Below are positions 2,917 to 54,011 of a DNA stretch of 64,000 bases, piece by piece. This DNA is from an uncultured Verrucomicrobiota bacterium (GTDB taxonomy: Bacteria > Verrucomicrobiota > Kiritimatiellia > PWTM01), in contig CAYODK010000001.1 in assembly GCA_964402695.1 (NCBI GenBank), forward strand, positions 12,702-76,701, read 5' to 3'. The translations under genes were made by a program, and so were the position numbers. Numbering within the stretch: position 1 is the first letter of the stretch; every line of letters starts with the position of its first letter. A model generated the notes under the pieces. That model was not told where the DNA came from. It ran no database searches and saw only the letters and a list, made by a program, of their open reading frames with translations.

Positions 2917-3981
2917 ATGGCACTGGCTCTCTACCTGATCGGAACGCCGCGATGCGGCAAGACGGCGGTCTTTGACGCGCTGACGAACACGCCGGCCGGC
3001 CCGAACTTCATGACCAAGGGCGGGCACCGCTACGGGACCGTCAAGGTCCCCGACACCCGGCTCGAGGCTCTCCGCGACCTCTTCAAGCCGAAGAAGTTCA
3101 CCCCGGCGGAGGTCACCTTCACCGACGTCGCCCCTCCGGGCGGCGAGGCGATCCACTTCGGCGACATGACCCCCGTGCTCGGCAATGCCGACGCGTTCGT
3201 CCTCGTCGTCCAGGCCTTTGGCGAGTTCGACTACGAGGGCAAGCCCCTCGACCCCGTCGCCCAGATGGAGTCGGTCATCCTCGAGATCACGGTGTCCGAC
3301 TTCGAACGCATCGAGAAGCGCATCGAGAAGGCCGTCACGGACAAGAAGCACGGCGGCAAGATGTCCGAACAGGAGATGAAGCTTCTCGAACGCTGCCGCG
3401 ACCATCTCGCGGCGGACAAGCCTCTCCGGACGATGGAGATGCGCGATGACGAGGAGAAGATCCTCCGCACCTACCAGTTCCTGTCGCAGAAGCCGCTGCT
3501 GGTCGTAGCGAACATCTCCGAGGACCGCATCCGCACCGGTGGCCTCGAGGCCCTCGACGCGGCGGCGAAGGAGCGCGGACTTGAGGTCCTGCAGTTCTGC
3601 GCGACGCTGGAGGCCGAGATCGCGACGCTCGATCCCGCCGCCCAGGTCGAGTTCCTCAAGGACTATGGCCTCGCCGAGCCCGCGCGCATCCGGCTCCTGC
3701 ACGCCGCCTACAAGGCCCTCCGGCTGATCAGCTTCTTCACCGTCGGCGAGGACGAGGTCCGGGCGTGGACGATCCACGAGGGCACCCACGCCCAGGCCGC
3801 CGCCGGCAAGATCCACACCGACATCGAGCGCGGCTTCATCCGCGCCGAGACCGTTCCCTCCGACGAACTGCTCCGCCAGGGCACCCTTGCGAAGTGCCGC
3901 GAACACGGCACGCTCCGCCTCGAGGGCAAGGAGTACATCGTCCGCGACGGCGAGGTCCTCCACTTCCGCTTCAGCGTGTGA
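2917..3981 (+). CDS. ychF: divergent YchF/Obg-like ATPase
   Basis: Track ORF 2878..3981; internal start MALALYLIGTPRCGKTAVFDALT (P-loop GxxxxGKT) and the C-terminal YchF/TGS signature GKIHTDIERGFIRAETV. The canonical NVGKST is replaced by RCGKTA. Confidence 0.7.
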   Translation: MALALYLIGTPRCGKTAVFDALTNTPAGPNFMTKGGHRYGTVKVPDTRLEALRDLFKPKKFTPAEVTFTDVAPPGGEAIHFGDMTPVLGNADAFVLVVQAFGEFDYEGKPLDPVAQMESVILEITVSDFERIEKRIEKAVTDKKHGGKMSEQEMKLLERCRDHLAADKPLRTMEMRDDEEKILRTYQFLSQKPLLVVANISEDRIRTGGLEALDAAAKERGLEVLQFCATLEAEIATLDPAAQVEFLKDYGLAEPARIRLLHAAYKALRLISFFTVGEDEVRAWTIHEGTHAQAAAGKIHTDIERGFIRAETVPSDELLRQGTLAKCREHGTLRLEGKEYIVRDGEVLHFRFSV

Positions 3982-4014
3982 TCCGGCACCCCGTCCCCGG
4001 TCGGCCGCGCGATG

Positions 4015-4049
4015 CAGGGGGACACACTTTATAAAGTCTGTCCCCCTGG
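4015..4049. terminator. bidirectional hairpin between the convergent ychF-like and RACo genes
   Basis: CAGGGGGACACA-ctttataaagt-CTGTCCCCCTGG forms a 10-11 bp GC-rich stem with an AT-rich loop. Confidence 0.55.
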
Positions 4050-4183
4050 TGGGCTCTTCCGGATCAGCGGGTCGATTCGAGCGAACCCCTGCCCGGGTCG
4101 GGCGCCCTGCCTGACAGGATGAGTCCGGCCGTTCCGAAACAGCTCGCCAGGAGCGCGCCCATGATGCGCGGTGTGATCCTCGA

Positions 4184-6100
4184 TCATCCCCGGGGAGGGG
4201 TCGCACGGGTGGACTGCCACATCTCCTGCGTTGCCGCCGCGAAGGCGGAGGGGTCGGCGTTGGGGAGGAGCATCGAGTCGATGTAGGCGGACTCGAACTC
4301 CGGGCGGAGGTTGAGTTCGACCGGTTCGGCGGCGCGGATAATGCGCTCGAACTCCGCGGCGGCGCCGGGGCCGCCGAGCGCGAGGACCGCGCCGGCGAGC
4401 GAGCCGTTGCCGATCACCTCGATCTTCCCGGCGGGCAGGTCGGGCAGCAGCCCCATCCACGCGGCGTGGCGCAGGTGAATGTAGCGTGCGAAGCCTCCGG
4501 CGAGGATCAGCGTGTCGAGATCCGCGACGGTGCGCCCGGCGGCGGCGAGCAGGGTCACGATGCCCGCGTGGATCGCGGCCTTGGCCTTCAGGATTTCGGC
4601 GACGTCCGCCTCGGAGACCGTCAGCGGGTGCCCGGCGGCGGTCGCCTCGGCGGGCACGACGCGGCAGGCGTGGATGTGCCGGCCTCGGTGGTCGACCCGC
4701 GCGTCGAGGCCGGCGGCGCGGAGCCGGTCCATGTCGAAGCGGCCGAGCGCGTCGAGGAGGCCGGACCGGAACGACTGGGCGACGAAGTCGACGATCGCCG
4801 ACCCGCAGAATCCGGCCGCCGGAGCGCCGCCGATCGTCGTCCATTCGGCCTCCGGCCCGTCCGTCCAGCGCACGTGGTCCACCGCGCCGTCGGCCGCGCG
4901 CATGCCGTGGCGCAGCCCCGCGCCCTCGAATGCCGGTCCCGCCGCAGTCGCCGCGCACAGGAGCCGGGCGCCGTCCCAGAGCAGGATTTCGCCGTTGGTG
5001 CCGATGTCGACCAGGGCCACGAGACCCTTGCGGTCGAGAAGCCGCGCCGCGCAGGCGTCCGCGACCAGGTCCCCGCCGACGTGCCCCGTCATCGAGGGCA
5101 GCACGTCGACGATCGCGTTCGGGTTCGCCGCGAGGCCCAGGTCGCGCGCGCGGCACTCCGGGTGGCGGCGGCGCACCGGCTGGAACGGCATCGCGCCGAT
5201 ACCCGCCGGGGTGAGCCCGAGAAACAGGTGCGCCATCACCGTGTTTCCGGCGGCGGTCACGCGAACGATCGCCTCCGGCGCGCAGCCGGCCTTCTCGCAC
5301 AGTTCGGCGGCCAGCCGGTTGATCGTGTCGCGCACGACGAGCGACTGCAGCTGGGCCAGCCCCCCGGGCGCCATGGAGACCGTGATCCGGGCGGCCACGT
5401 CGTCGCCCTTCCGCATCTGCGCGTTGTAGGCGGACGCGCGGCCGATCGCGGCGCCGGTGTCGAGATCGGCCAGCAGCGCGACGACGGTTGTGGTTCCGAT
5501 GTCGACGGCGAGCCCCAGGTGGCGGGTTGTCCCGGCCGGCGCGACCGCCGTAACGTCCACGCCCCCCCGGAACGGCCCCCATGAAACGTCCAGGCGGGGG
5601 GCTGCGGCCAGATGTCCCGGGAGTTCCCGCGCAACGTGGAGATCCGGAACCGCCCCCTCGGGACCCCCGGCCCCGGTGAGCGCGAGCGCGAGTCGTTCCA
5701 CGTCGGAGGAGGCGGTCTCCCAGGTGCCGCCGGAGACGGCGACCGTCGCGCGCCGCTGCACCGGTGTCCAGGCGAAGGCCGGAATCACGAAGTCGTCGGC
5801 GATGCTGGCCCGCTGCTCGACCAGCGACCGGTCCGGGATCTCCACCACGGCATCCGCGGAAGCGGGCCGCGTGCCGCAGGCCTGCGCCCGGCGCGGCGCG
5901 CCCGGCTCCACGCGCACCTCGGAGCCGCGGATGACAAACGCGCCCTCGTGGAGGATGACGGCGCAGCGGCCGCAGGCGCCGCGCGCGCCGCAGGCCGTGT
6001 TGAGCGGGATGCCGGCGGCGAACGCGAGATCCGCCAGCGTGGAACCGGGGGGGCCGTCCTGGATCCGGGTCTCGCCGCGGATCCGGAAGCGCACGCTCAT
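4184..6100 (-). CDS. corrinoid reductive activase (RACo-type: 2Fe-2S ferredoxin plus ASKHA ATPase domain)
   Basis: The N-terminus LNTACGARGACGRCAV is a plant-type ferredoxin Cys cluster. It is followed by a long ASKHA/DUF4445-like region (DIGTTTVV...VDIGTNGEI). It lies 22 nt downstream of a B12-binding protein gene on the same strand. Confidence 0.75.
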   Translation of the reverse strand: MSVRFRIRGETRIQDGPPGSTLADLAFAAGIPLNTACGARGACGRCAVILHEGAFVIRGSEVRVEPGAPRRAQACGTRPASADAVVEIPDRSLVEQRASIADDFVIPAFAWTPVQRRATVAVSGGTWETASSDVERLALALTGAGGPEGAVPDLHVARELPGHLAAAPRLDVSWGPFRGGVDVTAVAPAGTTRHLGLAVDIGTTTVVALLADLDTGAAIGRASAYNAQMRKGDDVAARITVSMAPGGLAQLQSLVVRDTINRLAAELCEKAGCAPEAIVRVTAAGNTVMAHLFLGLTPAGIGAMPFQPVRRRHPECRARDLGLAANPNAIVDVLPSMTGHVGGDLVADACAARLLDRKGLVALVDIGTNGEILLWDGARLLCAATAAGPAFEGAGLRHGMRAADGAVDHVRWTDGPEAEWTTIGGAPAAGFCGSAIVDFVAQSFRSGLLDALGRFDMDRLRAAGLDARVDHRGRHIHACRVVPAEATAAGHPLTVSEADVAEILKAKAAIHAGIVTLLAAAGRTVADLDTLILAGGFARYIHLRHAAWMGLLPDLPAGKIEVIGNGSLAGAVLALGGPGAAAEFERIIRAAEPVELNLRPEFESAYIDSMLLPNADPSAFAAATQEMWQSTRATPPRG

Positions 6101-6777: not shown

Positions 6778-7215
6778 CTACACCATGTCCCCGGGCTTCT
6801 CCACCGTGGTATCCTGCAGAATGTCGGTCATCCGGTCGAGGGCGGCCTGGATGGTGGCCATCTCCTCGCGGATCCGTTCGAAGCGGAGCGCATGGTCGAT
6901 CCGGAGCTTCTCGAGGTAGCGCTTCCGATCCAGCACCTCCTCCATGGTGACCTGGAGGCGCTCGACCTTCTCCTTGAGAATCTCCTCGGCGGAGGCATCG
7001 AGGCCGCCGGGGCCGACGAGCTCCGTGTCGGAGCCCGGCGGGCCGGACATGGTCTGCTCCTCCCGGGTGGGAACCTGCATGCGCTGGCCGCACTCGGTGC
7101 ATGTGACCACCAGCCCTGCGCCGCGTTCGTCGATGCAGAGGCTCTTCCCGCACTGCGGGCAGTCAAACAGGATGTCGCGTTCCGACACGTCGGTGGACGA
7201 GGCGTCATCGTTCAT
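6778..7215 (-). CDS. zinc-ribbon (CPxCG ... CxxCG) protein with coiled-coil C-terminus, hypothetical
   Basis: Real start MNDDASST... lies inside track ORF 6778..7773 and abuts the mvaD stop (7212-7214). Motifs FDCPQCGKSL...CTECGQ. Confidence 0.5.
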   Translation of the reverse strand: MNDDASSTDVSERDILFDCPQCGKSLCIDERGAGLVVTCTECGQRMQVPTREEQTMSGPPGSDTELVGPGGLDASAEEILKEKVERLQVTMEEVLDRKRYLEKLRIDHALRFERIREEMATIQAALDRMTDILQDTTVEKPGDMV

Positions 7216-8288
7216 GGTCCAGCCCTCTGATTCCGTGGCAAGGGTATCGCCGAACCTCCTGTCCCACAAGTCAAACCCGCCGGGTTCCGAAACGGATGCA
7301 GCACGCGGAGGCCGGGCACGGCCGCGCGGAGGGCCGCCTCCGAGCCGGACTCGAAGATCAGCTTGAGGTTGGGTCCGGCGTCCATGGTGAACCACACCGG
7401 GATGCCGTCCTCGCGCCATCGGGCCGCCTGGCGCATCGCGCGGACCGACTCCGGAAGCCAGTAGAGAACCGGCGGCCGCGCTGCAAGGGCGGTCGCGTGC
7501 ATCGCCATCGCGTTGCCTTCCGCCGCCGCCCCGAGGCGGGGCAGGTCGCGCGCGGCGATCGCGGACCGGACGTCCGCCAGATCCTGCTCCACGACGGCGG
7601 GCCACCCCGCGTACAGCGGCGACGACTCCACCGTGCGCCGCATGCCCTCGCGGGAGCCGGTCGCCTTCGGGGCGTCGCTCAGGACCCACAGGCCGATGCG
7701 CAGTTCCGGCCAGAGCGGGTCGAGCGGTACGCCGTGCGAATCGGAACCGTCGGGCGACGCCCCGGCGCGCCACTCGACGAAGCCGTCCCAGAGGGACCTG
7801 CAGGCGCTGCCGCTGCCCAGCCGGGCAAGAACCGACAGCCCCCTCGCGTCGAGGCTCCAGCCCAGCAGGCCGTCGAGGGCCCGCACGAGCGCGGCGAATC
7901 CCGAGGCGGACGAGGCCACGCCGGCCGCCGTGGGCACCGTGTTGGTGGATTCGACGGAGAAGCCCGGGCAGGCCGGGGTGCGGAAGAGGTCCAGAAACTG
8001 CGAGAGACGCACCGCGGCCGGGGCCGTCGGATCGACCGTCGCGCCGTTGAGGCGGAACGAGTCGCGGTCCGAGGCGCCCGCCGTGGTGCGGGTTCCGGCG
8101 TCGCCCAGCGACACCGAGAGGCTGCCTGTGACCGGCAGGTTCAGCTCCCCGTCGCGCTTGCCCCAGTACTTCACGAGCGCGATGTTGGCGGGCGCGAACG
8201 CGGTCGCCGGGGCGCCGGGGCGCGCGATGCGGCCCTGGAGGACGTCCCCGACGGCGGCGCGGCGGCGATCGGCACCGGAGGAACTCAT
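7212..8288 (-). CDS. mvaD: diphosphomevalonate decarboxylase
   Basis: C-terminal 358 aa of track ORF 7212..9131, starting MSSSGADRR...; signatures APANIALVKYWGKRD, GSLSVSL, ESTNTVPTAAGVASSASGFAALV and ARLGSGSACRS. Confidence 0.8.
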   Translation of the reverse strand: MSSSGADRRRAAVGDVLQGRIARPGAPATAFAPANIALVKYWGKRDGELNLPVTGSLSVSLGDAGTRTTAGASDRDSFRLNGATVDPTAPAAVRLSQFLDLFRTPACPGFSVESTNTVPTAAGVASSASGFAALVRALDGLLGWSLDARGLSVLARLGSGSACRSLWDGFVEWRAGASPDGSDSHGVPLDPLWPELRIGLWVLSDAPKATGSREGMRRTVESSPLYAGWPAVVEQDLADVRSAIAARDLPRLGAAAEGNAMAMHATALAARPPVLYWLPESVRAMRQAARWREDGIPVWFTMDAGPNLKLIFESGSEAALRAAVPGLRVLHPFRNPAGLTCGTGGSAIPLPRNQRAGP

Positions 8289-9208
8289 GCGCCGGTCTCC
8301 ACCACGAGGCCCTCGGCCCCGACCGCGACGCCGATCTCCCTCATCGCGGGATCGAGCCGCGCCGGCCGGCCGAGCGCGACGACACAGTCGCCCAGACCCG
8401 AGCCGGAGATCTTCGCGCCGAGCACCGCCGGATCCGCCCGCAGGGCGTGGACGAGGCCCGCGAGCGTCGCGTCGCTCACGCCGATCGCATCCATCAACCC
8501 CTGCGCGACGTTCATCAACGCGCCCACGCGCGTCCAGTTGGCCTGCTCGACCGCCGCCGTCGCCTCCTCCGCGACGCGGTTCATCGCCTCGTAGACGGCG
8601 TTGAAGACGGCCGGCATGGCGGCCCGCGAGGTCTCGACGCGGCGGATGACCTCGGGCGTCGGCGTCTTGTACCCCGCGTAGACCAGCGTCACCGGCGGCG
8701 CCTGCGCGATGCGGCGGATCGCGAGCGGGTCGGCGCGGTAGGCGACGACGCCTCCGAACGCGCTCGCCGCGGCGTCGGCGCCCGAACCCGCGCCCTGCAC
8801 ACCGCGGATCACGTCGCGCGCGATCCGCACGAGCGCCTCGCGGGACGGAGTCCGCCCGGCGTATGCCGCGAACGCCGCGAGGGAGGCGACCGTCACGGCG
8901 GCCGACGAGCCAAGGCCGACGGTCGGCGGGAACTCGGACTCGATCCGCAGGTCGAACCCGCCCGGGAGCGCCGCCGCCTCGCGCGCCAGCGAGGCCAGGA
9001 CGAAGCGGAAGGGCTCGGACGGTGCGGGCGCGTCCAGCGTCGTCTCGTGCCGTCCGAGCGCCGATTCGATCGTGACGATCCGGTCCGTCCGCGGCGCGAG
9101 CGTCGCCGTCAGCCGCGCCGACGCGGCGCACACCAGCGCCCGCTTGCCGTGCAGCACCGCGTGCTCGCCGAACAGCATGAACGACCCCGGAGCCGATGCG
9201 CGTATCAT
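8285..9208 (-). CDS. mvk: mevalonate kinase (GHMP kinase)
   Basis: Internal start MIRASAPGSFMLFGEHAVLHGKRAL (MVK N-terminal motif); GHMP motif PPTVGLGSSAAVTVA; its stop abuts the mvaD ATG. Confidence 0.75.
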   Translation of the reverse strand: MIRASAPGSFMLFGEHAVLHGKRALVCAASARLTATLAPRTDRIVTIESALGRHETTLDAPAPSEPFRFVLASLAREAAALPGGFDLRIESEFPPTVGLGSSAAVTVASLAAFAAYAGRTPSREALVRIARDVIRGVQGAGSGADAAASAFGGVVAYRADPLAIRRIAQAPPVTLVYAGYKTPTPEVIRRVETSRAAMPAVFNAVYEAMNRVAEEATAAVEQANWTRVGALMNVAQGLMDAIGVSDATLAGLVHALRADPAVLGAKISGSGLGDCVVALGRPARLDPAMREIGVAVGAEGLVVETGA

Positions 9209-9551
9209 GCGGGTCTTATACCACGCACGCCCTTCCTCCGCATCTTCCCTCGCCCCGCCCAGATCCTCGCCAAGCCGGATGTGCGCGGAAGGAATAGGCA
9301 TGAAGTACGCATGGTTACGGCCGCGACGGAGCGCGGCCCTCCAGTGCTCATCCAATCAACATGCGAGAGGACGGCTTTGGAGGGCGCCGCGGTGCCTGCC
9401 CTGCATAGCGTCTTCGCGAAGCAGGGTCGGCGCCGTGCAACAGACCCGCGGAGCAACGTTCGCCACCAATCACCGGGGCTTCGCCGAGGATTTGAGGCCC
9501 GGCTTCCGGGTTGCGCGCGCGATGCGGGGAGTGCATCGTCCCTTCCAGCGG

Positions 9552-14315: not shown

Positions 14316-14779
14316 GCGCCCGACCGCCCAGCCTCCCGGACGCGGACCGCCGCTGGATCGTCGTCGACCGGCCGCCCTGGCCCGAACTCCTGCGCGCGCA
14401 CCTGCCCGGCGTCGTGATCGCCGGGCCGGTCCTGCTGGCGGCGCGGTTCTATCCGTTCCGGGAGCATCCCGTCATCACGTGCCAGTTCCGGAAGTGGACC
14501 GGCCATCCGTGCCCGGGCTGCGGCTTCACGCGCGCCTTCCAGTCGATCGCCCGCGGGCGCCCGGCGGACGCCGCGCGCGACGCCCCGGCCTCGCTGCTCC
14601 TGTTTGCCGGCGTGGCGCTCGTGCTGGCGTGGAACCTGGCCGCGCTCGCCCTGCGCCGCCGCCTCCGCCCCGGTCCGCGCCTGGTGCCCGGTCCGCGCGC
14701 GTGGCGCATCCTGATCGCGACGGGGGCGGTCATCCTGGCGGCGAACTGGATCTGGCGGATCGCGAACGGGCTTCAGTGA
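14312..14779 (+). CDS. DUF2752-like membrane protein
   Basis: In-frame GTG at 14312 overlaps the upstream stop (GTGTGA); the track alternative is ATG at 14231. Contains CQFRKWTGHPCPGCGFTRA (C...CPGCGxTRA motif) and two C-terminal TM helices. Confidence 0.55.
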   Translation: MSARPPSLPDADRRWIVVDRPPWPELLRAHLPGVVIAGPVLLAARFYPFREHPVITCQFRKWTGHPCPGCGFTRAFQSIARGRPADAARDAPASLLLFAGVALVLAWNLAALALRRRLRPGPRLVPGPRAWRILIATGAVILAANWIWRIANGLQ

Positions 14780-14833
14780 ATCCTTCCGGCGCTTGCCGCG
14801 AACCTCCGCCGCGCATAGTCTTGCCCCGCCTCC

Positions 14834-14910
14834 GGGCCCGTAGCTCAGTTGGTCAGAGCTGGAGACTCATAATCTCTAGGTCGCAGGTTCGAGCCCTGCC
14901 GGGCCCACCA
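14834..14910 (+). tRNA. tRNA-Met (anticodon CAT; elongator-type, could also be tRNA-Ile2/lysidine)
   Basis: GGGCCCGTAGCTCAGTTGGTCAGAGCTGGAGACTCATAATCTCTAGGTCGCAGGTTCGAGCCCTGCCGGGCCCACCA: 7-bp acceptor stem GGGCCCG/CGGGCCC, anticodon loop CTCATAA, T-loop GTTCGAGCC, encoded CCA. Confidence 0.9.
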
Positions 14911-15309
14911 TCCTTCGCTCGGCGCGGGGCGGCGAGCGAAGGATGGTGCCCTCCATAGCGCCGCTCCGCGGCGCGACGGAGGGCCCGTGGTCCGCTCCGC
15001 GCCGAGCTACGGATGGCAGGCCATGTTCTATACGTATGTCTTGGAAAGCGAGATCGAACCGTCCCGCCATTACATCGGCCATACTGCGGACCTGGCCCAG
15101 CGGCTGTTGGATCACAACGCCGGGACCTCGCCGCACACGACCAAGTACCGGCCCTGGCGCGTGAAGTTCCATGCGGCCTTTGAAACGATCGAACGGGCCC
15201 GGACCTTTGAGCGCTATCTGAAATCCGGATCCGGTCACGCCTTCGCTCACAAGCATCTCGGTTTCTGAAGCGCTCGGCGCGGAGCGGCGAGCGAAGGATG
15301 GTGCCCTCC
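14911..15309 (+). mobile_element. tRNA-adjacent GIY-YIG nuclease cassette bounded by ~38-bp direct repeats
   Basis: Direct repeats GCTCGGCGCGG(G/A)GCGGCGAGCGAAGGATGGTGCCCTCC at ~14917-14954 and ~15271-15309 flank one GIY-YIG gene; the left copy starts right after the tRNA 3' CCA. Confidence 0.6.
15023..15268 (+). CDS. GIY-YIG nuclease family protein (UPF0213-like)
   Basis: MFYTYVLESEIEPSRHYIGHTADLAQRLLDHN: GIY-YIG-type motifs (YVLES...YIGHT...R...HN). Confidence 0.75.
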   Translation: MFYTYVLESEIEPSRHYIGHTADLAQRLLDHNAGTSPHTTKYRPWRVKFHAAFETIERARTFERYLKSGSGHAFAHKHLGF

Positions 15310-15378
15310 GGCGGCATGTCTGGAGTTGCGGGCGCCGGATCCCGGCCGTAGGCTCGGACGGGCACCGGCCCCACGGGT

Positions 15379-15877
15379 CATGCCGATGAAGACCATCCTG
15401 ATCGGGATCTGTTGCGTGGCATTCCTCGCCAGCGTCGCCGGGGCGAAGCCGCCGGCCGAACGAGCCAACATCCTCGGGGTCAGGCCCTCCGCGCGCGCCG
15501 AAACCGGTGGGGCGGCCACGTTCACCTTCGAGGTCTTCGTCACGCAGGCCAACCTCTCGGGCAAGGGGACCGTCTGCACGCTGTACGTGGAATTTGCAGA
15601 CAGCGCCAAGCAGAAGTACCTCGCCACCGGCGAGTGCTCCCTGGACGAGTTCCCGGTGGGGAGGACCTTTGGTGTGATCTACCGGTTCTCCGTCTTCCAC
15701 GAGAAGGGGGCGGACCTGAAGCCCACCGCCTATGCCACCACCGTTCGTCTCGGCGGCTCGGCGTCCCTGCTGGATCAGAAGACGGACAAGGTGAAGTCGC
15801 TCGAATCGATGAAAGTCTCCACGCTGTCCCACGCGAAGCTCGAGTTCCAATCCTCCGCCCATGTCCAGGGCCGGTGA
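15379..15877 (+). CDS. secreted hypothetical protein
   Basis: MPMKTILIGICCVAFLASVAGA signal peptide; no recognisable domain. Confidence 0.45.
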
Positions 15878-53657: not shown

Positions 53658-54011
53658 CGGTCATTTGACAACGCGCGGAACGGGGGTAGGGTCAAGTCGG
53701 GCAGCGTGCGTTTTCTCTGGGTTCTCCACCCAACCTCCTTGGCGCGCGCTGCCCTTCGCGTTTTCTCCGCGCGAAGGCCGGGAGGGCCCGCGCGTGCCCG
53801 CCGTAGCCGTGGCGAAGGCGGGGCCCCGCGGGCCGTACGACGAACCCCCAATCGGTGATTCGGCCGCCGGGGCCGGCGACCCTCCCGGCGCATGGGGAAA
53901 GGGGCGGAGGAGTCCGGGCTCCCAGCAGTTCGCCCCTCCAGCCCGCGGCCGGTGCGGAAAAGGCGAATGGCCGGGGGTCGCCCCGGCCATTCGTGCGCCA
54001 TCCGGGTGCGC

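Follow-up and report, generated by a model that had tools for sequence, protein, structure and literature searches.

A GIY-YIG nuclease cassette with a structured leader at the 3' ends of tRNA and tmRNA genes

Stand-alone Slx1-like proteins of prokaryotes are the minimal form recognized in a 2006 survey of the GIY-YIG nuclease superfamily, which also examined the neighbourhoods of Slx1-like genes and reported associations with methyltransferases, with no mention of linkage to transfer RNA (tRNA) genes (PMC1564403). The subject of this report is a gene of this type in a 64-kb stretch of DNA from an uncultured Verrucomicrobiota bacterium (contig CAYODK010000001.1, positions 12,702 to 76,701). 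This whole stretch is referred to as the window, and unprefixed positions are counted from its first base. The gene lies downstream of a tRNA-Met gene and forms, with a leader of about 110 nt, a 355-nt cassette. Window positions 14911-15309 hold 1.11 head-to-tail copies of it. The cassette is one of a family of minimal chromosomal elements that are widespread at the 3' ends of tRNA and transfer-messenger RNA (tmRNA) genes. A literature search of open-access papers and bioRxiv, with most subscription journals outside its range, found no description of tRNA-linked Slx1-like GIY-YIG genes or of the leader.

Several described systems resemble parts of this arrangement. The cassette nuclease shares its fold and catalytic residues with Slx1, At-HIGLE and the bacterial UPF0213 proteins (BH0048, EF2693, YhbQ-type). 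It differs from Slx1 in having neither an Slx4 partner nor a RING domain, and has a C-terminal YLKSGSGHAFAKRH motif of its own. Small free-standing GIY-YIG seg genes are located beside tRNA genes, and selfish inheritance through break repair is described for them (PMC2330249, PMC13096335). The likeness to the T-even Seg family, and to SegB in particular, lies in this small free-standing gene at tRNA genes. Seg proteins, however, carry C-terminal DNA-binding domains, belong to the homing endonuclease/UvrC lineage and are phage-borne; they have no CCA-anchored palindromic leader and form no tandem units. Repetitive extragenic palindromes (REPs) and their RAYT transposases (REPINs) provide another parallel: one nuclease gene lies between palindromic repeats, of which solo copies exist as well (for REP background, see PMC3733652). 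RAYTs are HUH/Y1 enzymes and REPs are high-copy and not tied to tRNA genes, whereas the cassette modules are low-copy and nearly all reside in the leader.

Islands that target tRNA and tmRNA genes with tyrosine integrases share the 3'-end location and the occasional duplication of a tRNA 3' end, which is seen at family locus L013 (L-numbers denote loci or contigs of relatives fetched for comparison). In contrast to such islands, the cassette has no integrase, its repeat excludes the tRNA, and it spans only 355 bp. Elements of the IS200/IS605 family, such as IS608, insert in a specific orientation directly 3' of a short target, with which the foot of a hairpin base-pairs. The putative TGG(TG)/CCA pairing of the cassette is analogous. 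The cassette nevertheless lacks an HUH transposase, a GIY-YIG hydrolase alone cannot perform strand transfer, and only tRNA and tmRNA ends are used. Egan and Landy reportedly described, in 1978, 178-bp tandem repeats distal to Escherichia coli tyrT that are arranged head-to-tail after the tRNA, with a partial last copy and a small open reading frame (ORF); these units are said to include the tRNA 3' end and to encode no nuclease. To our knowledge, repeats of the tyrT type have not been recognized as a cross-phylum family.

The 355-nt unit at tRNA-Met and in related genomes

The tRNA-Met gene, the 81-aa GIY-YIG ORF and a pair of direct repeats of about 38 bp, some 355 nt apart, had been reported in a first-pass annotation of the window, and all are confirmed. 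The 38-mer is exact at 14917-14954 and recurs with one mismatch at 15272-15309; 100 shuffles gave 0 matches. In register the repeat measures 39 nt, with one mismatch and a spacing of 355 nt (table 1). It starts 6 nt after the CCA end, and not immediately past it as had been stated. No further direct copy occurs in the 64-kb window, so that the repeat is not a scattered REP there, and an extra, inverted and imperfect copy lies at 14992-15022, just before the ATG. The GIY-YIG ORF is alone between the repeats: no integrase or recombinase gene is found there. The 10-bp inverted repeat pointed out within the 38-mer is present and is part of a hairpin with 20-nt arms that takes in the CACCA of the tRNA. 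Sequence comparison favours another explanation of the 'bracketing repeats': a second copy of the 355-nt leader and ORF unit starts at the second repeat and is truncated. An assembly artefact was rejected: the repeat is only 39 nt long and is reproduced in independent assemblies (L001, L005, L006).

The closest relatives, whose proteins are 85-89% identical to that of the window, also come from uncultured Verrucomicrobiota. Gene order in L001-L003, L005 and L006 is DUF2752 gene, tRNA-Met, leader and GIY-YIG gene, and the L004 contig begins inside the leader. Each of L001-L006 has a partial leader copy 2-5 nt past the stop codon. The length of this partial second copy is 24 nt in L006, 28 nt in L001, 35 nt in L005, 39 nt in the window and 154 nt in L004, where it extends through the entire leader and 16 codons into a second ORF (1.43 units in all). 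The junction of repeat and flank falls within about 9 nt of the same position in the window, L004 and L005, the loci with common downstream genes. Tandem arrays with a truncated last copy are not confined to tRNA-Met. In L089, a tRNA-Ala(GGC) gene is followed by two complete units and a 22-nt start of a third in the same register (2.06 units). The two ORFs of this array have diverged (dN 0.16, with synonymous sites saturated), and the leaders are near-identical. Second copies or fragments also occur in L008, L014, L026, L027, L063 and L072. Attachment sites and target-site duplications were rejected as readings of the repeats, because the start of the repeat is fixed, its end varies and it runs on into a second copy of the gene.

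Whole units are present or absent at the same site; the GIY-YIG gene is thus not universal at this tRNA-Met. A search with the downstream 163-aa protein recovered contigs from six samples (L090-L095) that are 99.8% identical to L004 over 4.2 kb. Synteny is complete: sulfatase, DUF2752, tRNA-Met, 163-aa gene, 208-aa gene and ABC transporter. Past the tRNA, the L090-L095 contigs contain just the leader and a 16-17-codon stub before the flank. L004 carries one complete 355-nt unit ahead of the stub that all of them share, so that the alleles differ by exactly one unit, the outcome expected of recombination between repeated leaders. Two further contigs, L086 and L087, were the only ones from a metagenome scan with the 3' half of tRNA-Met, and both end about 270 nt past the tRNA. 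In the upstream genes and the tRNA, they share about 88% identity with the window. The only leader modules past tRNA-Met are H1, as a diverged hairpin, and HP2, of which the left half is present (modules described below); no GIY-YIG gene lies in the 270 nt before the contigs end.

The same address is used across the family. One genome per species was scanned with a profile of 76 relatives, and the best 80 of more than 580 relative-encoding stretches were taken as species-level loci. Of the 80, 62 have a tRNA or tmRNA gene upstream on the same strand, with a distance of 81-315 nt (median 125) from its end to the start codon; at least 400 nt of upstream sequence is available for 74 of the 80, which makes the proportion 62 of 74. 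At about one tRNA per tens of kilobases, same-strand adjacency within 350 nt would arise by chance at a rate of the order of 1% or less. The anchoring genes of the 62 loci comprise 25 tRNA anticodon types and tmRNA, and the hosts include Verrucomicrobiota, Lentisphaerae, Planctomycetota, many Alphaproteobacteria (Mesorhizobium, Bradyrhizobium), Acidobacteriota, Fibrobacteres, Dependentiae and others. Anchoring is orientation-specific and precise to the base: the leader begins at the base after CCA, with TCCT.. or GCCT.., and the flanks of the 25 tRNA types share no sequence beyond CCA. Several loci without a complete tRNA gene have a tRNA or tmRNA 3' fragment directly ahead of the leader (L041, L052, L076, L063, L011, L018, L033); others start at a contig end or have a left-truncated leader (L007, L008). 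Rfam detected no other stable RNA upstream of the tRNA-less loci. In L041, L052, L076 and L033 the fragment ranges from about 10 nt to the 3' half of the tRNA, as if the tRNA end had moved with the cassette or had been displaced by another insertion.

The structured leader and the nuclease

Side-by-side comparison of the intergenic segments reveals four leader modules that recur across phyla. S1 begins TCCTTCGC.., TCCTGCTTCGC.. or GCCTTCGC... S3 complements S1 exactly, and TG or a longer extension comes after it. HP2 has the consensus TGCCCTCC-GAAGC-CTTG-GCGAAG-GAGGGC, which folds into a 7-bp outer stem, a 3x3 internal loop of the GAA/GAA type, an inner stem of at least 2 bp and a tetraloop. 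M, with the consensus ..GCTWCGG(A/C)TGGCAGGCC, complements S1 imperfectly. The Verrucomicrobia type, to which the window belongs, has the modules in the order S1-S3-HP2-M, and the alphaproteobacterial type has them in the order S1-M-S3-HP2. In the window, S1 and S3 form the hairpin H1, with arms that are 95% complementary and a 3-nt loop; its left arm opens with the terminal CACCA of tRNA-Met. HP2 of the window likewise consists of an inner stem-loop and a 7-bp outer stem separated by a 3x3 internal loop. M adjoins the start codon and is an imperfect complement of the tRNA end and S1. The second repeat copy can still fold the inner H1 hairpin (CGCTCG...CGAGCG).

The leader helices take in the last 2-14 bases of the tRNA. 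The S1:S3 stem is detectable in 57 of 66 family leaders and reaches into the tRNA by at least the terminal CA in 50 of these 57. The extension of S3 varies with the tRNA end that it faces: TGGTG/CACCA, TGGTCG/CGACCA (tRNA-Pro), TGGCGG/CCGCCA (tRNA-Ser) and TGGCGGAGAGGA/TCCTCTCCGCCA. In L037 and L054 an inverted copy of 12-14 nt of the tRNA-Ser 3' end (TGGCGGAGAGGA) follows S3, so that the palindrome is lengthened into the tRNA. The sister Mesorhizobium loci L035, L038 and L047 have only TG at this place.

Leader and protein are both strongly constrained. The leader of the window is 94-96% identical to those of L001, L005 and L090, and the coding sequence is 83-88% identical to those of L001 and L005 (L090 has no complete ORF); the leader is therefore more conserved than the coding sequence. 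Positions of HP2 are paired in 96% of cases in 42 modules, with compensatory changes at positions not used for selection. For S1:S3, 93% of cells are paired in 14 leaders. For S1:M the figure is 98%, and eight of 16 pairs have compensatory changes on both sides. Covariation support is stronger for S1:M than for S1:S3, and these two helices are mutually exclusive. The minimum-free-energy fold of the window leader RNA is the long-range S1:M helix enclosing HP2 (-83.7 kcal/mol, z=-6.2). In alphaproteobacterial loci (L021, L025, L037, L059, L060, L077 and others) 5-12 nt separate the right arm of HP2, GGAGGG, from the start codon downstream of it, so that HP2 would sequester the Shine-Dalgarno sequence. 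No Rfam 15 family matches the leader: the tRNA alone passes the threshold, and the rest is sub-threshold microRNA and small-RNA noise.

Transcription of the unit probably depends on the tRNA promoter. The only candidate promoter for the tRNA, leader and ORF together is a motif upstream of the tRNA (table 1) that is kept in L001, L005, L006, L086 and L090, where the surrounding spacer is only 65-89% identical; a sigma-70 scan did not call it. Scans of 14600-15500 detected neither a sigma-70-like promoter nor a hairpin with a T-run that resembles a terminator. Neither hairpin copy has a T-run behind it; H1 was therefore rejected as an intrinsic terminator, one of the functions that had been suggested for it. 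The tRNA-Met, the sole tRNA of the window according to ARAGORN, is 100% identical in L001 and L005.

Table 1. Features of the tRNA-Met locus in the window.
Feature	Position	Strand	Basis
Putative tRNA promoter (CTTGCC ... CATAGT)	14792-14819	+	Motif conservation
tRNA-Met(CAT) with encoded CCA, anchor of the cassette	14834-14910	+	ARAGORN; Rfam RF00005, 72 bits
Hairpin H1 (S1:S3), arms 14906-14925 and 14929-14948	14906-14948	+	Inverted-repeat search
Direct-repeat copy 1: inner H1 and first HP2 bases; start of unit 1 in repeat register	14916-14954	+	
Hairpin HP2 (TGCCCTCC-ATAGC-inner stem-GCGAC-GGAGGGC)	14947-14985	+	Covariance model R1, 31 bits, E=1e-5
Segment M (CCGCTCCGCGCCGAGCTACGGATGGCAGGCC)	14992-15022	+	Inverted repeat, 31 nt, 84% complementary
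81-aa GIY-YIG nuclease gene, predicted Slx1/HIGLE/UPF0213 type, from ATG	15023-15268	+	Pfam PF01541
Direct-repeat copy 2: truncated start of second unit, 3 nt past stop codon	15271-15309	+	

The ORF matches the Pfam GIY-YIG model PF01541 (E=1.2e-12, 48 bits, against a cut-off of 22.6), and the catalytic residues Y5, Y17, R27, H31 and E63 are invariant in 76 family sequences. An AlphaFold (AF2) model has a predicted local distance difference test score (pLDDT) of 95.8. The best matches in a profile search of the PDB are 1zg2, 7cq2, 7wme, 6seh, 4xlg and 1ywl. Foldseek ranks 7wme (the At-HIGLE catalytic domain of Arabidopsis), 7cq2 and 6sei (both Slx1) and 1zg2 (Bacillus BH0048) highest, with TM-scores up to 0.74. 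The Slx1 matches, 7cq2, 6sei and 4xlg among them, come from several Slx1-Slx4 structures. The nearest solved relatives are thus Slx1 or UPF0213, and not UvrC or I-TevI. Fold and profile comparison predict the protein to be a structure-selective nuclease of the Slx1/HIGLE type. All 81 residues lie inside the catalytic fold, with no NUMOD, helix-turn-helix (HTH) or Zn-finger DNA-binding domain, and the YLKSGSGHAFAKRH motif distinguishes the family at the C-terminus. Among tRNA-Met orthologues, the ratio of non-synonymous to synonymous substitution (dN/dS) is 0.08-0.17 at a dS of 0.4-0.9. The nuclease is under purifying selection, and the enzyme is therefore maintained. No model in NCBIfam, PADLOC or PHROGs matches the protein, and tblastn against plasmid and phage collections returned no homologue. 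An exact look-up of the window protein yielded no entry. Family members are currently annotated as 'excinuclease ABC subunit C' or 'GIY-YIG nuclease family protein', and the leaders and stubs are wholly unannotated. The 93-aa NCBI gene call for the window, from GTG 14987 and placed on a 113.8-kb contig, is probably too long, because most relatives have 81 residues and start MFY.

Leader modules also occur alone. A covariance model of HP2 gave 59 strong matches in 456 kb of other loci, and 58 of the 59 lie in GIY-YIG leaders; the module is therefore cassette-specific, and its interpretation as a generic REP was rejected on this ground. Solo S1-M hairpins are found directly past the CCA of tRNA-Phe in L020 (6543-6590, minus strand) and of tRNA-Cys in L012 (2590-2625). 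Each of the two genomes has a complete cassette as well, 1-3 kb off at a different tRNA. The L012 pair, 1.3 kb apart, combines two leader subtypes: GCC in the solo hairpin and TCC in the full cassette. The trailers of 14 other tRNAs in the fetched loci are unrelated. Unusually, the window contains two additional solo HP2 copies, both intergenic. The first, at 9397-9428 (plus strand), reads CCCTGC-ATAGC-GTCTTC-GCGAAG-CAGGG and sits between a mevalonate-diphosphate-decarboxylase-like gene (7212-9131, minus strand) and a divergent gene with an F5/8 type C domain. The second, at 53750-53824 (plus strand), combines an S1:S3-like hairpin (CCTTCGCG...CGCGAAGG) with a perfect HP2-type module at 53795-53824 (38 bits). 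It lies between a HEAT-repeat gene and, about 70 nt further on, an ORF at 53892. Neither a tRNA nor a GIY-YIG gene is near it, and it may be the remnant of a dead cassette.

Proposed mechanism and competing explanations

The interpretation that we hold to be somewhat better than evenly probable is that of a minimal selfish cassette at tRNA and tmRNA ends, which is expressed by read-through and gained and lost via its palindromic leader. The mechanism that we infer has the following steps. (i) The gene would be transcribed by read-through from the tRNA promoter, since no promoter- or terminator-like signal lies between tRNA and ORF. (ii) Alternative leader helices would restrain translation: HP2 would hide the GGAGG Shine-Dalgarno sequence in alphaproteobacterial loci, and in the window M would pair with S1 up to the start codon. 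(iii) The nuclease would cut hairpin or cruciform structures of the palindromic leader. (iv) Repair of the break from another leader copy, by gene conversion, synthesis-dependent strand annealing or unequal exchange, would add, remove or extend units. (v) Such repair would yield tandem units, partial copies of variable length at a fixed flank junction (the 39-nt repeat of the window), stubs, and extensions of the palindrome into the tRNA. (vi) Placement at new tRNA genes would be guided by pairing of the foot of the leader hairpin (TGG, TGGTG, TGGTCG, TGGCGG and others) with the tRNA 3' end.

A bolder version regards the cassette as an autonomous mobile element of about 355 bp. Its nuclease has no DNA-reading domain, and the hairpin foot TGG... 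would instead pick the target, at the level of gene or transcript, by pairing with any tRNA or tmRNA CCA end, and the element would colonise stable-RNA genes across phyla and use their promoters. We consider this version unlikely; if true, the cassette would be among the smallest conceivable mobile elements. An origin of the junction between CCA and S1 by tRNA-primed retro-copying is speculation: the geometry fits, and there is no supporting reverse transcriptase.

Several observations weigh against a selfish cassette. The gene has been kept at this tRNA-Met over the stated synonymous distance under purifying selection, which fits domestication too. A catalytic domain of 81 residues has no obvious means of choosing a target, and neither a homologue in the plasmid and phage collections nor a transfer vehicle is evident. 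No clean, never-occupied site was found beside a filled one: the 'empty' alleles (L086, L090) keep leader remnants, and what is visible is therefore loss or recombination, not de novo insertion. Collapse of repeats during assembly could in principle account for the L090-type contigs, but the stub allele was assembled from six samples and the full-length cluster P0002 (the L004 ORF) is recorded on one contig only. Concerted evolution of repeats, instead of selection for structure, could explain part of the covariation of S1, S3 and M, and the bias of G-T over A-C mismatches (15 versus 5) is weak for telling RNA-level from DNA-level function. The 80 family loci are, moreover, the best-scoring matches and hence a non-random sample.

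The main alternative is that the gene is a domesticated host gene: an Slx1-like repair or recombination nuclease expressed by tRNA read-through, with a leader that regulates translation or RNA processing (for example as a Shine-Dalgarno-sequestering switch or an RNase III site). Tandem repeats and stubs would then be by-products of slippage or unequal crossing-over between palindromes. The low dN/dS values agree with this, as do persistence of the gene beside one and the same tRNA-Met in the window and L001-L006 at dS values of up to 0.9, the higher conservation of the leader than of the coding sequence, the resemblance of the two covarying and mutually exclusive helices to a riboregulator, the GGAGGG arm ahead of alphaproteobacterial start codons, and the lack of plasmid and phage copies. 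Vertical inheritance, however, cannot put one gene after 25 tRNA types and tmRNA with a base-precise junction. It also leaves unexplained the two leader subtypes at neighbouring tRNAs in L012, the diverged tandem ORFs of L089 and the stub-only alleles in a 99.8% identical population. We regard domestication as a minority possibility; domestication and residual mobility, like domestication and the selfish cassette, are not mutually exclusive. A classical free-standing homing endonuclease would instead cut an unoccupied tRNA 3' flank sequence-specifically, so that its gene is copied by double-strand-break repair. There is precedent in SegB of T4, a GIY-YIG homing endonuclease within a tRNA gene cluster (PMC2330249), and presence/absence polymorphism at a fixed site (L004 versus L090-L095; the window versus L086), with leader remnants in the empty alleles, is also in keeping with homing by a GIY-YIG gene. 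The gene had indeed been called homing-endonuclease-like. Its product, however, is a catalytic core of 81 residues without NUMOD, HTH or other classical homing endonuclease DNA-binding domains, and it belongs to the Slx1 lineage, not to the homing endonuclease/UvrC lineage (PMC1564403). As homing makes neither direct repeats nor tandem units, and the 25 tRNA targets have flanks sharing nothing beyond CCA, this explanation is improbable.

Two further readings concern the repeats themselves. If the GIY-YIG protein mobilised dispersed palindromic modules of the HP2 or S1:M type, as RAYTs do REPs, the tRNA site would be merely the residence of the master gene. Palindromic modules do flank the gene, solo modules exist in the window and after other tRNAs, and S1-M on the minus strand shares the architecture of HP2. 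We nevertheless think this very improbable: copy number is very low (three modules per 64 kb), strong HP2 matches are almost confined to GIY-YIG leaders, there is no HUH/Y1 transposase, and anchoring at tRNAs is unexplained. The remaining reading, an integrase-type element or its remnant with the repeats as attL and attR of site-specific recombination at the tRNA gene, is the least probable of all those considered. It draws on the status of tRNA and tmRNA 3' ends as classical integration sites, on L013, where the last 20 nt of the tRNA recur 42-61 nt past the stop codon, and on one contig with a tyrosine-integrase island on the other side of the tRNA. Yet no recombinase lies between the repeats, and the repeat excludes the tRNA 3' end. 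Its length, 24-154 nt among relatives, is that of the beginning of a second cassette copy into which it continues. These data already contradict attachment sites, and they remove the direct repeats as the signature of integration that the first-pass annotation had seen in them. From its proposal of a small integrative or homing element, a discrete, tRNA-3'-linked unit that is gained and lost survives; the signature of integration or classical homing is unsupported.

A large UPF0213-like subfamily is now tied to a precise address, the base after the CCA of tRNA or tmRNA, and to a conserved structure of about 110 nt. Address and leader structure together offer concrete candidate substrates for bacterial stand-alone Slx1-like (UPF0213) nucleases. 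If mobile, the cassette would represent a new, extremely compact class of selfish element that uses a structure-selective nuclease and host recombination. It would share the target sites of integrases and may shape rearrangements beside tRNA genes.

Flanking genes and rearrangements

Synteny breaks right past the partial repeat, when the window from 15310 onward is compared with L001 from 2603 and L006 from 4270 onward. Downstream of the break, L001 and L006 have an S-methyltransferase gene and mevalonate-pathway genes; the window, L004, L005 and L090 have the 163-aa gene, the 208-aa gene and the ABC transporter. The mevalonate gene of the window is located about 6 kb upstream, beside the solo module at 9397. 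Judged from these positions, rearrangement breakpoints may coincide with hairpin modules.

At the locus with two tandem units after tRNA-Ala(GGC) (L089 1-1035; L088; the 68.6-kb contig of P0020/P0029), a tyrosine-integrase/HTH_17 island lies across the tRNA from the units, and a PIN-domain gene pair is found just downstream. Leader modules are amplified between tRNA and ORF at three loci: L029 has four HP2 copies with a 101-nt period (3543-3876), L039 has four leader-module copies with a 171-nt period (3362-3875), and L051 has two full leaders (3795-4000). In L080, a 3.1-kb tandem duplication (3787-4275 and 6903-7391) starts in the anticodon loop of tRNA-Ala(CGC) and covers the 3' half of the tRNA, the cassette and a Ser/Thr-kinase-TPR gene. 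An integrase island was considered for the second copy and rejected, since the duplicated segment contains no integrase.

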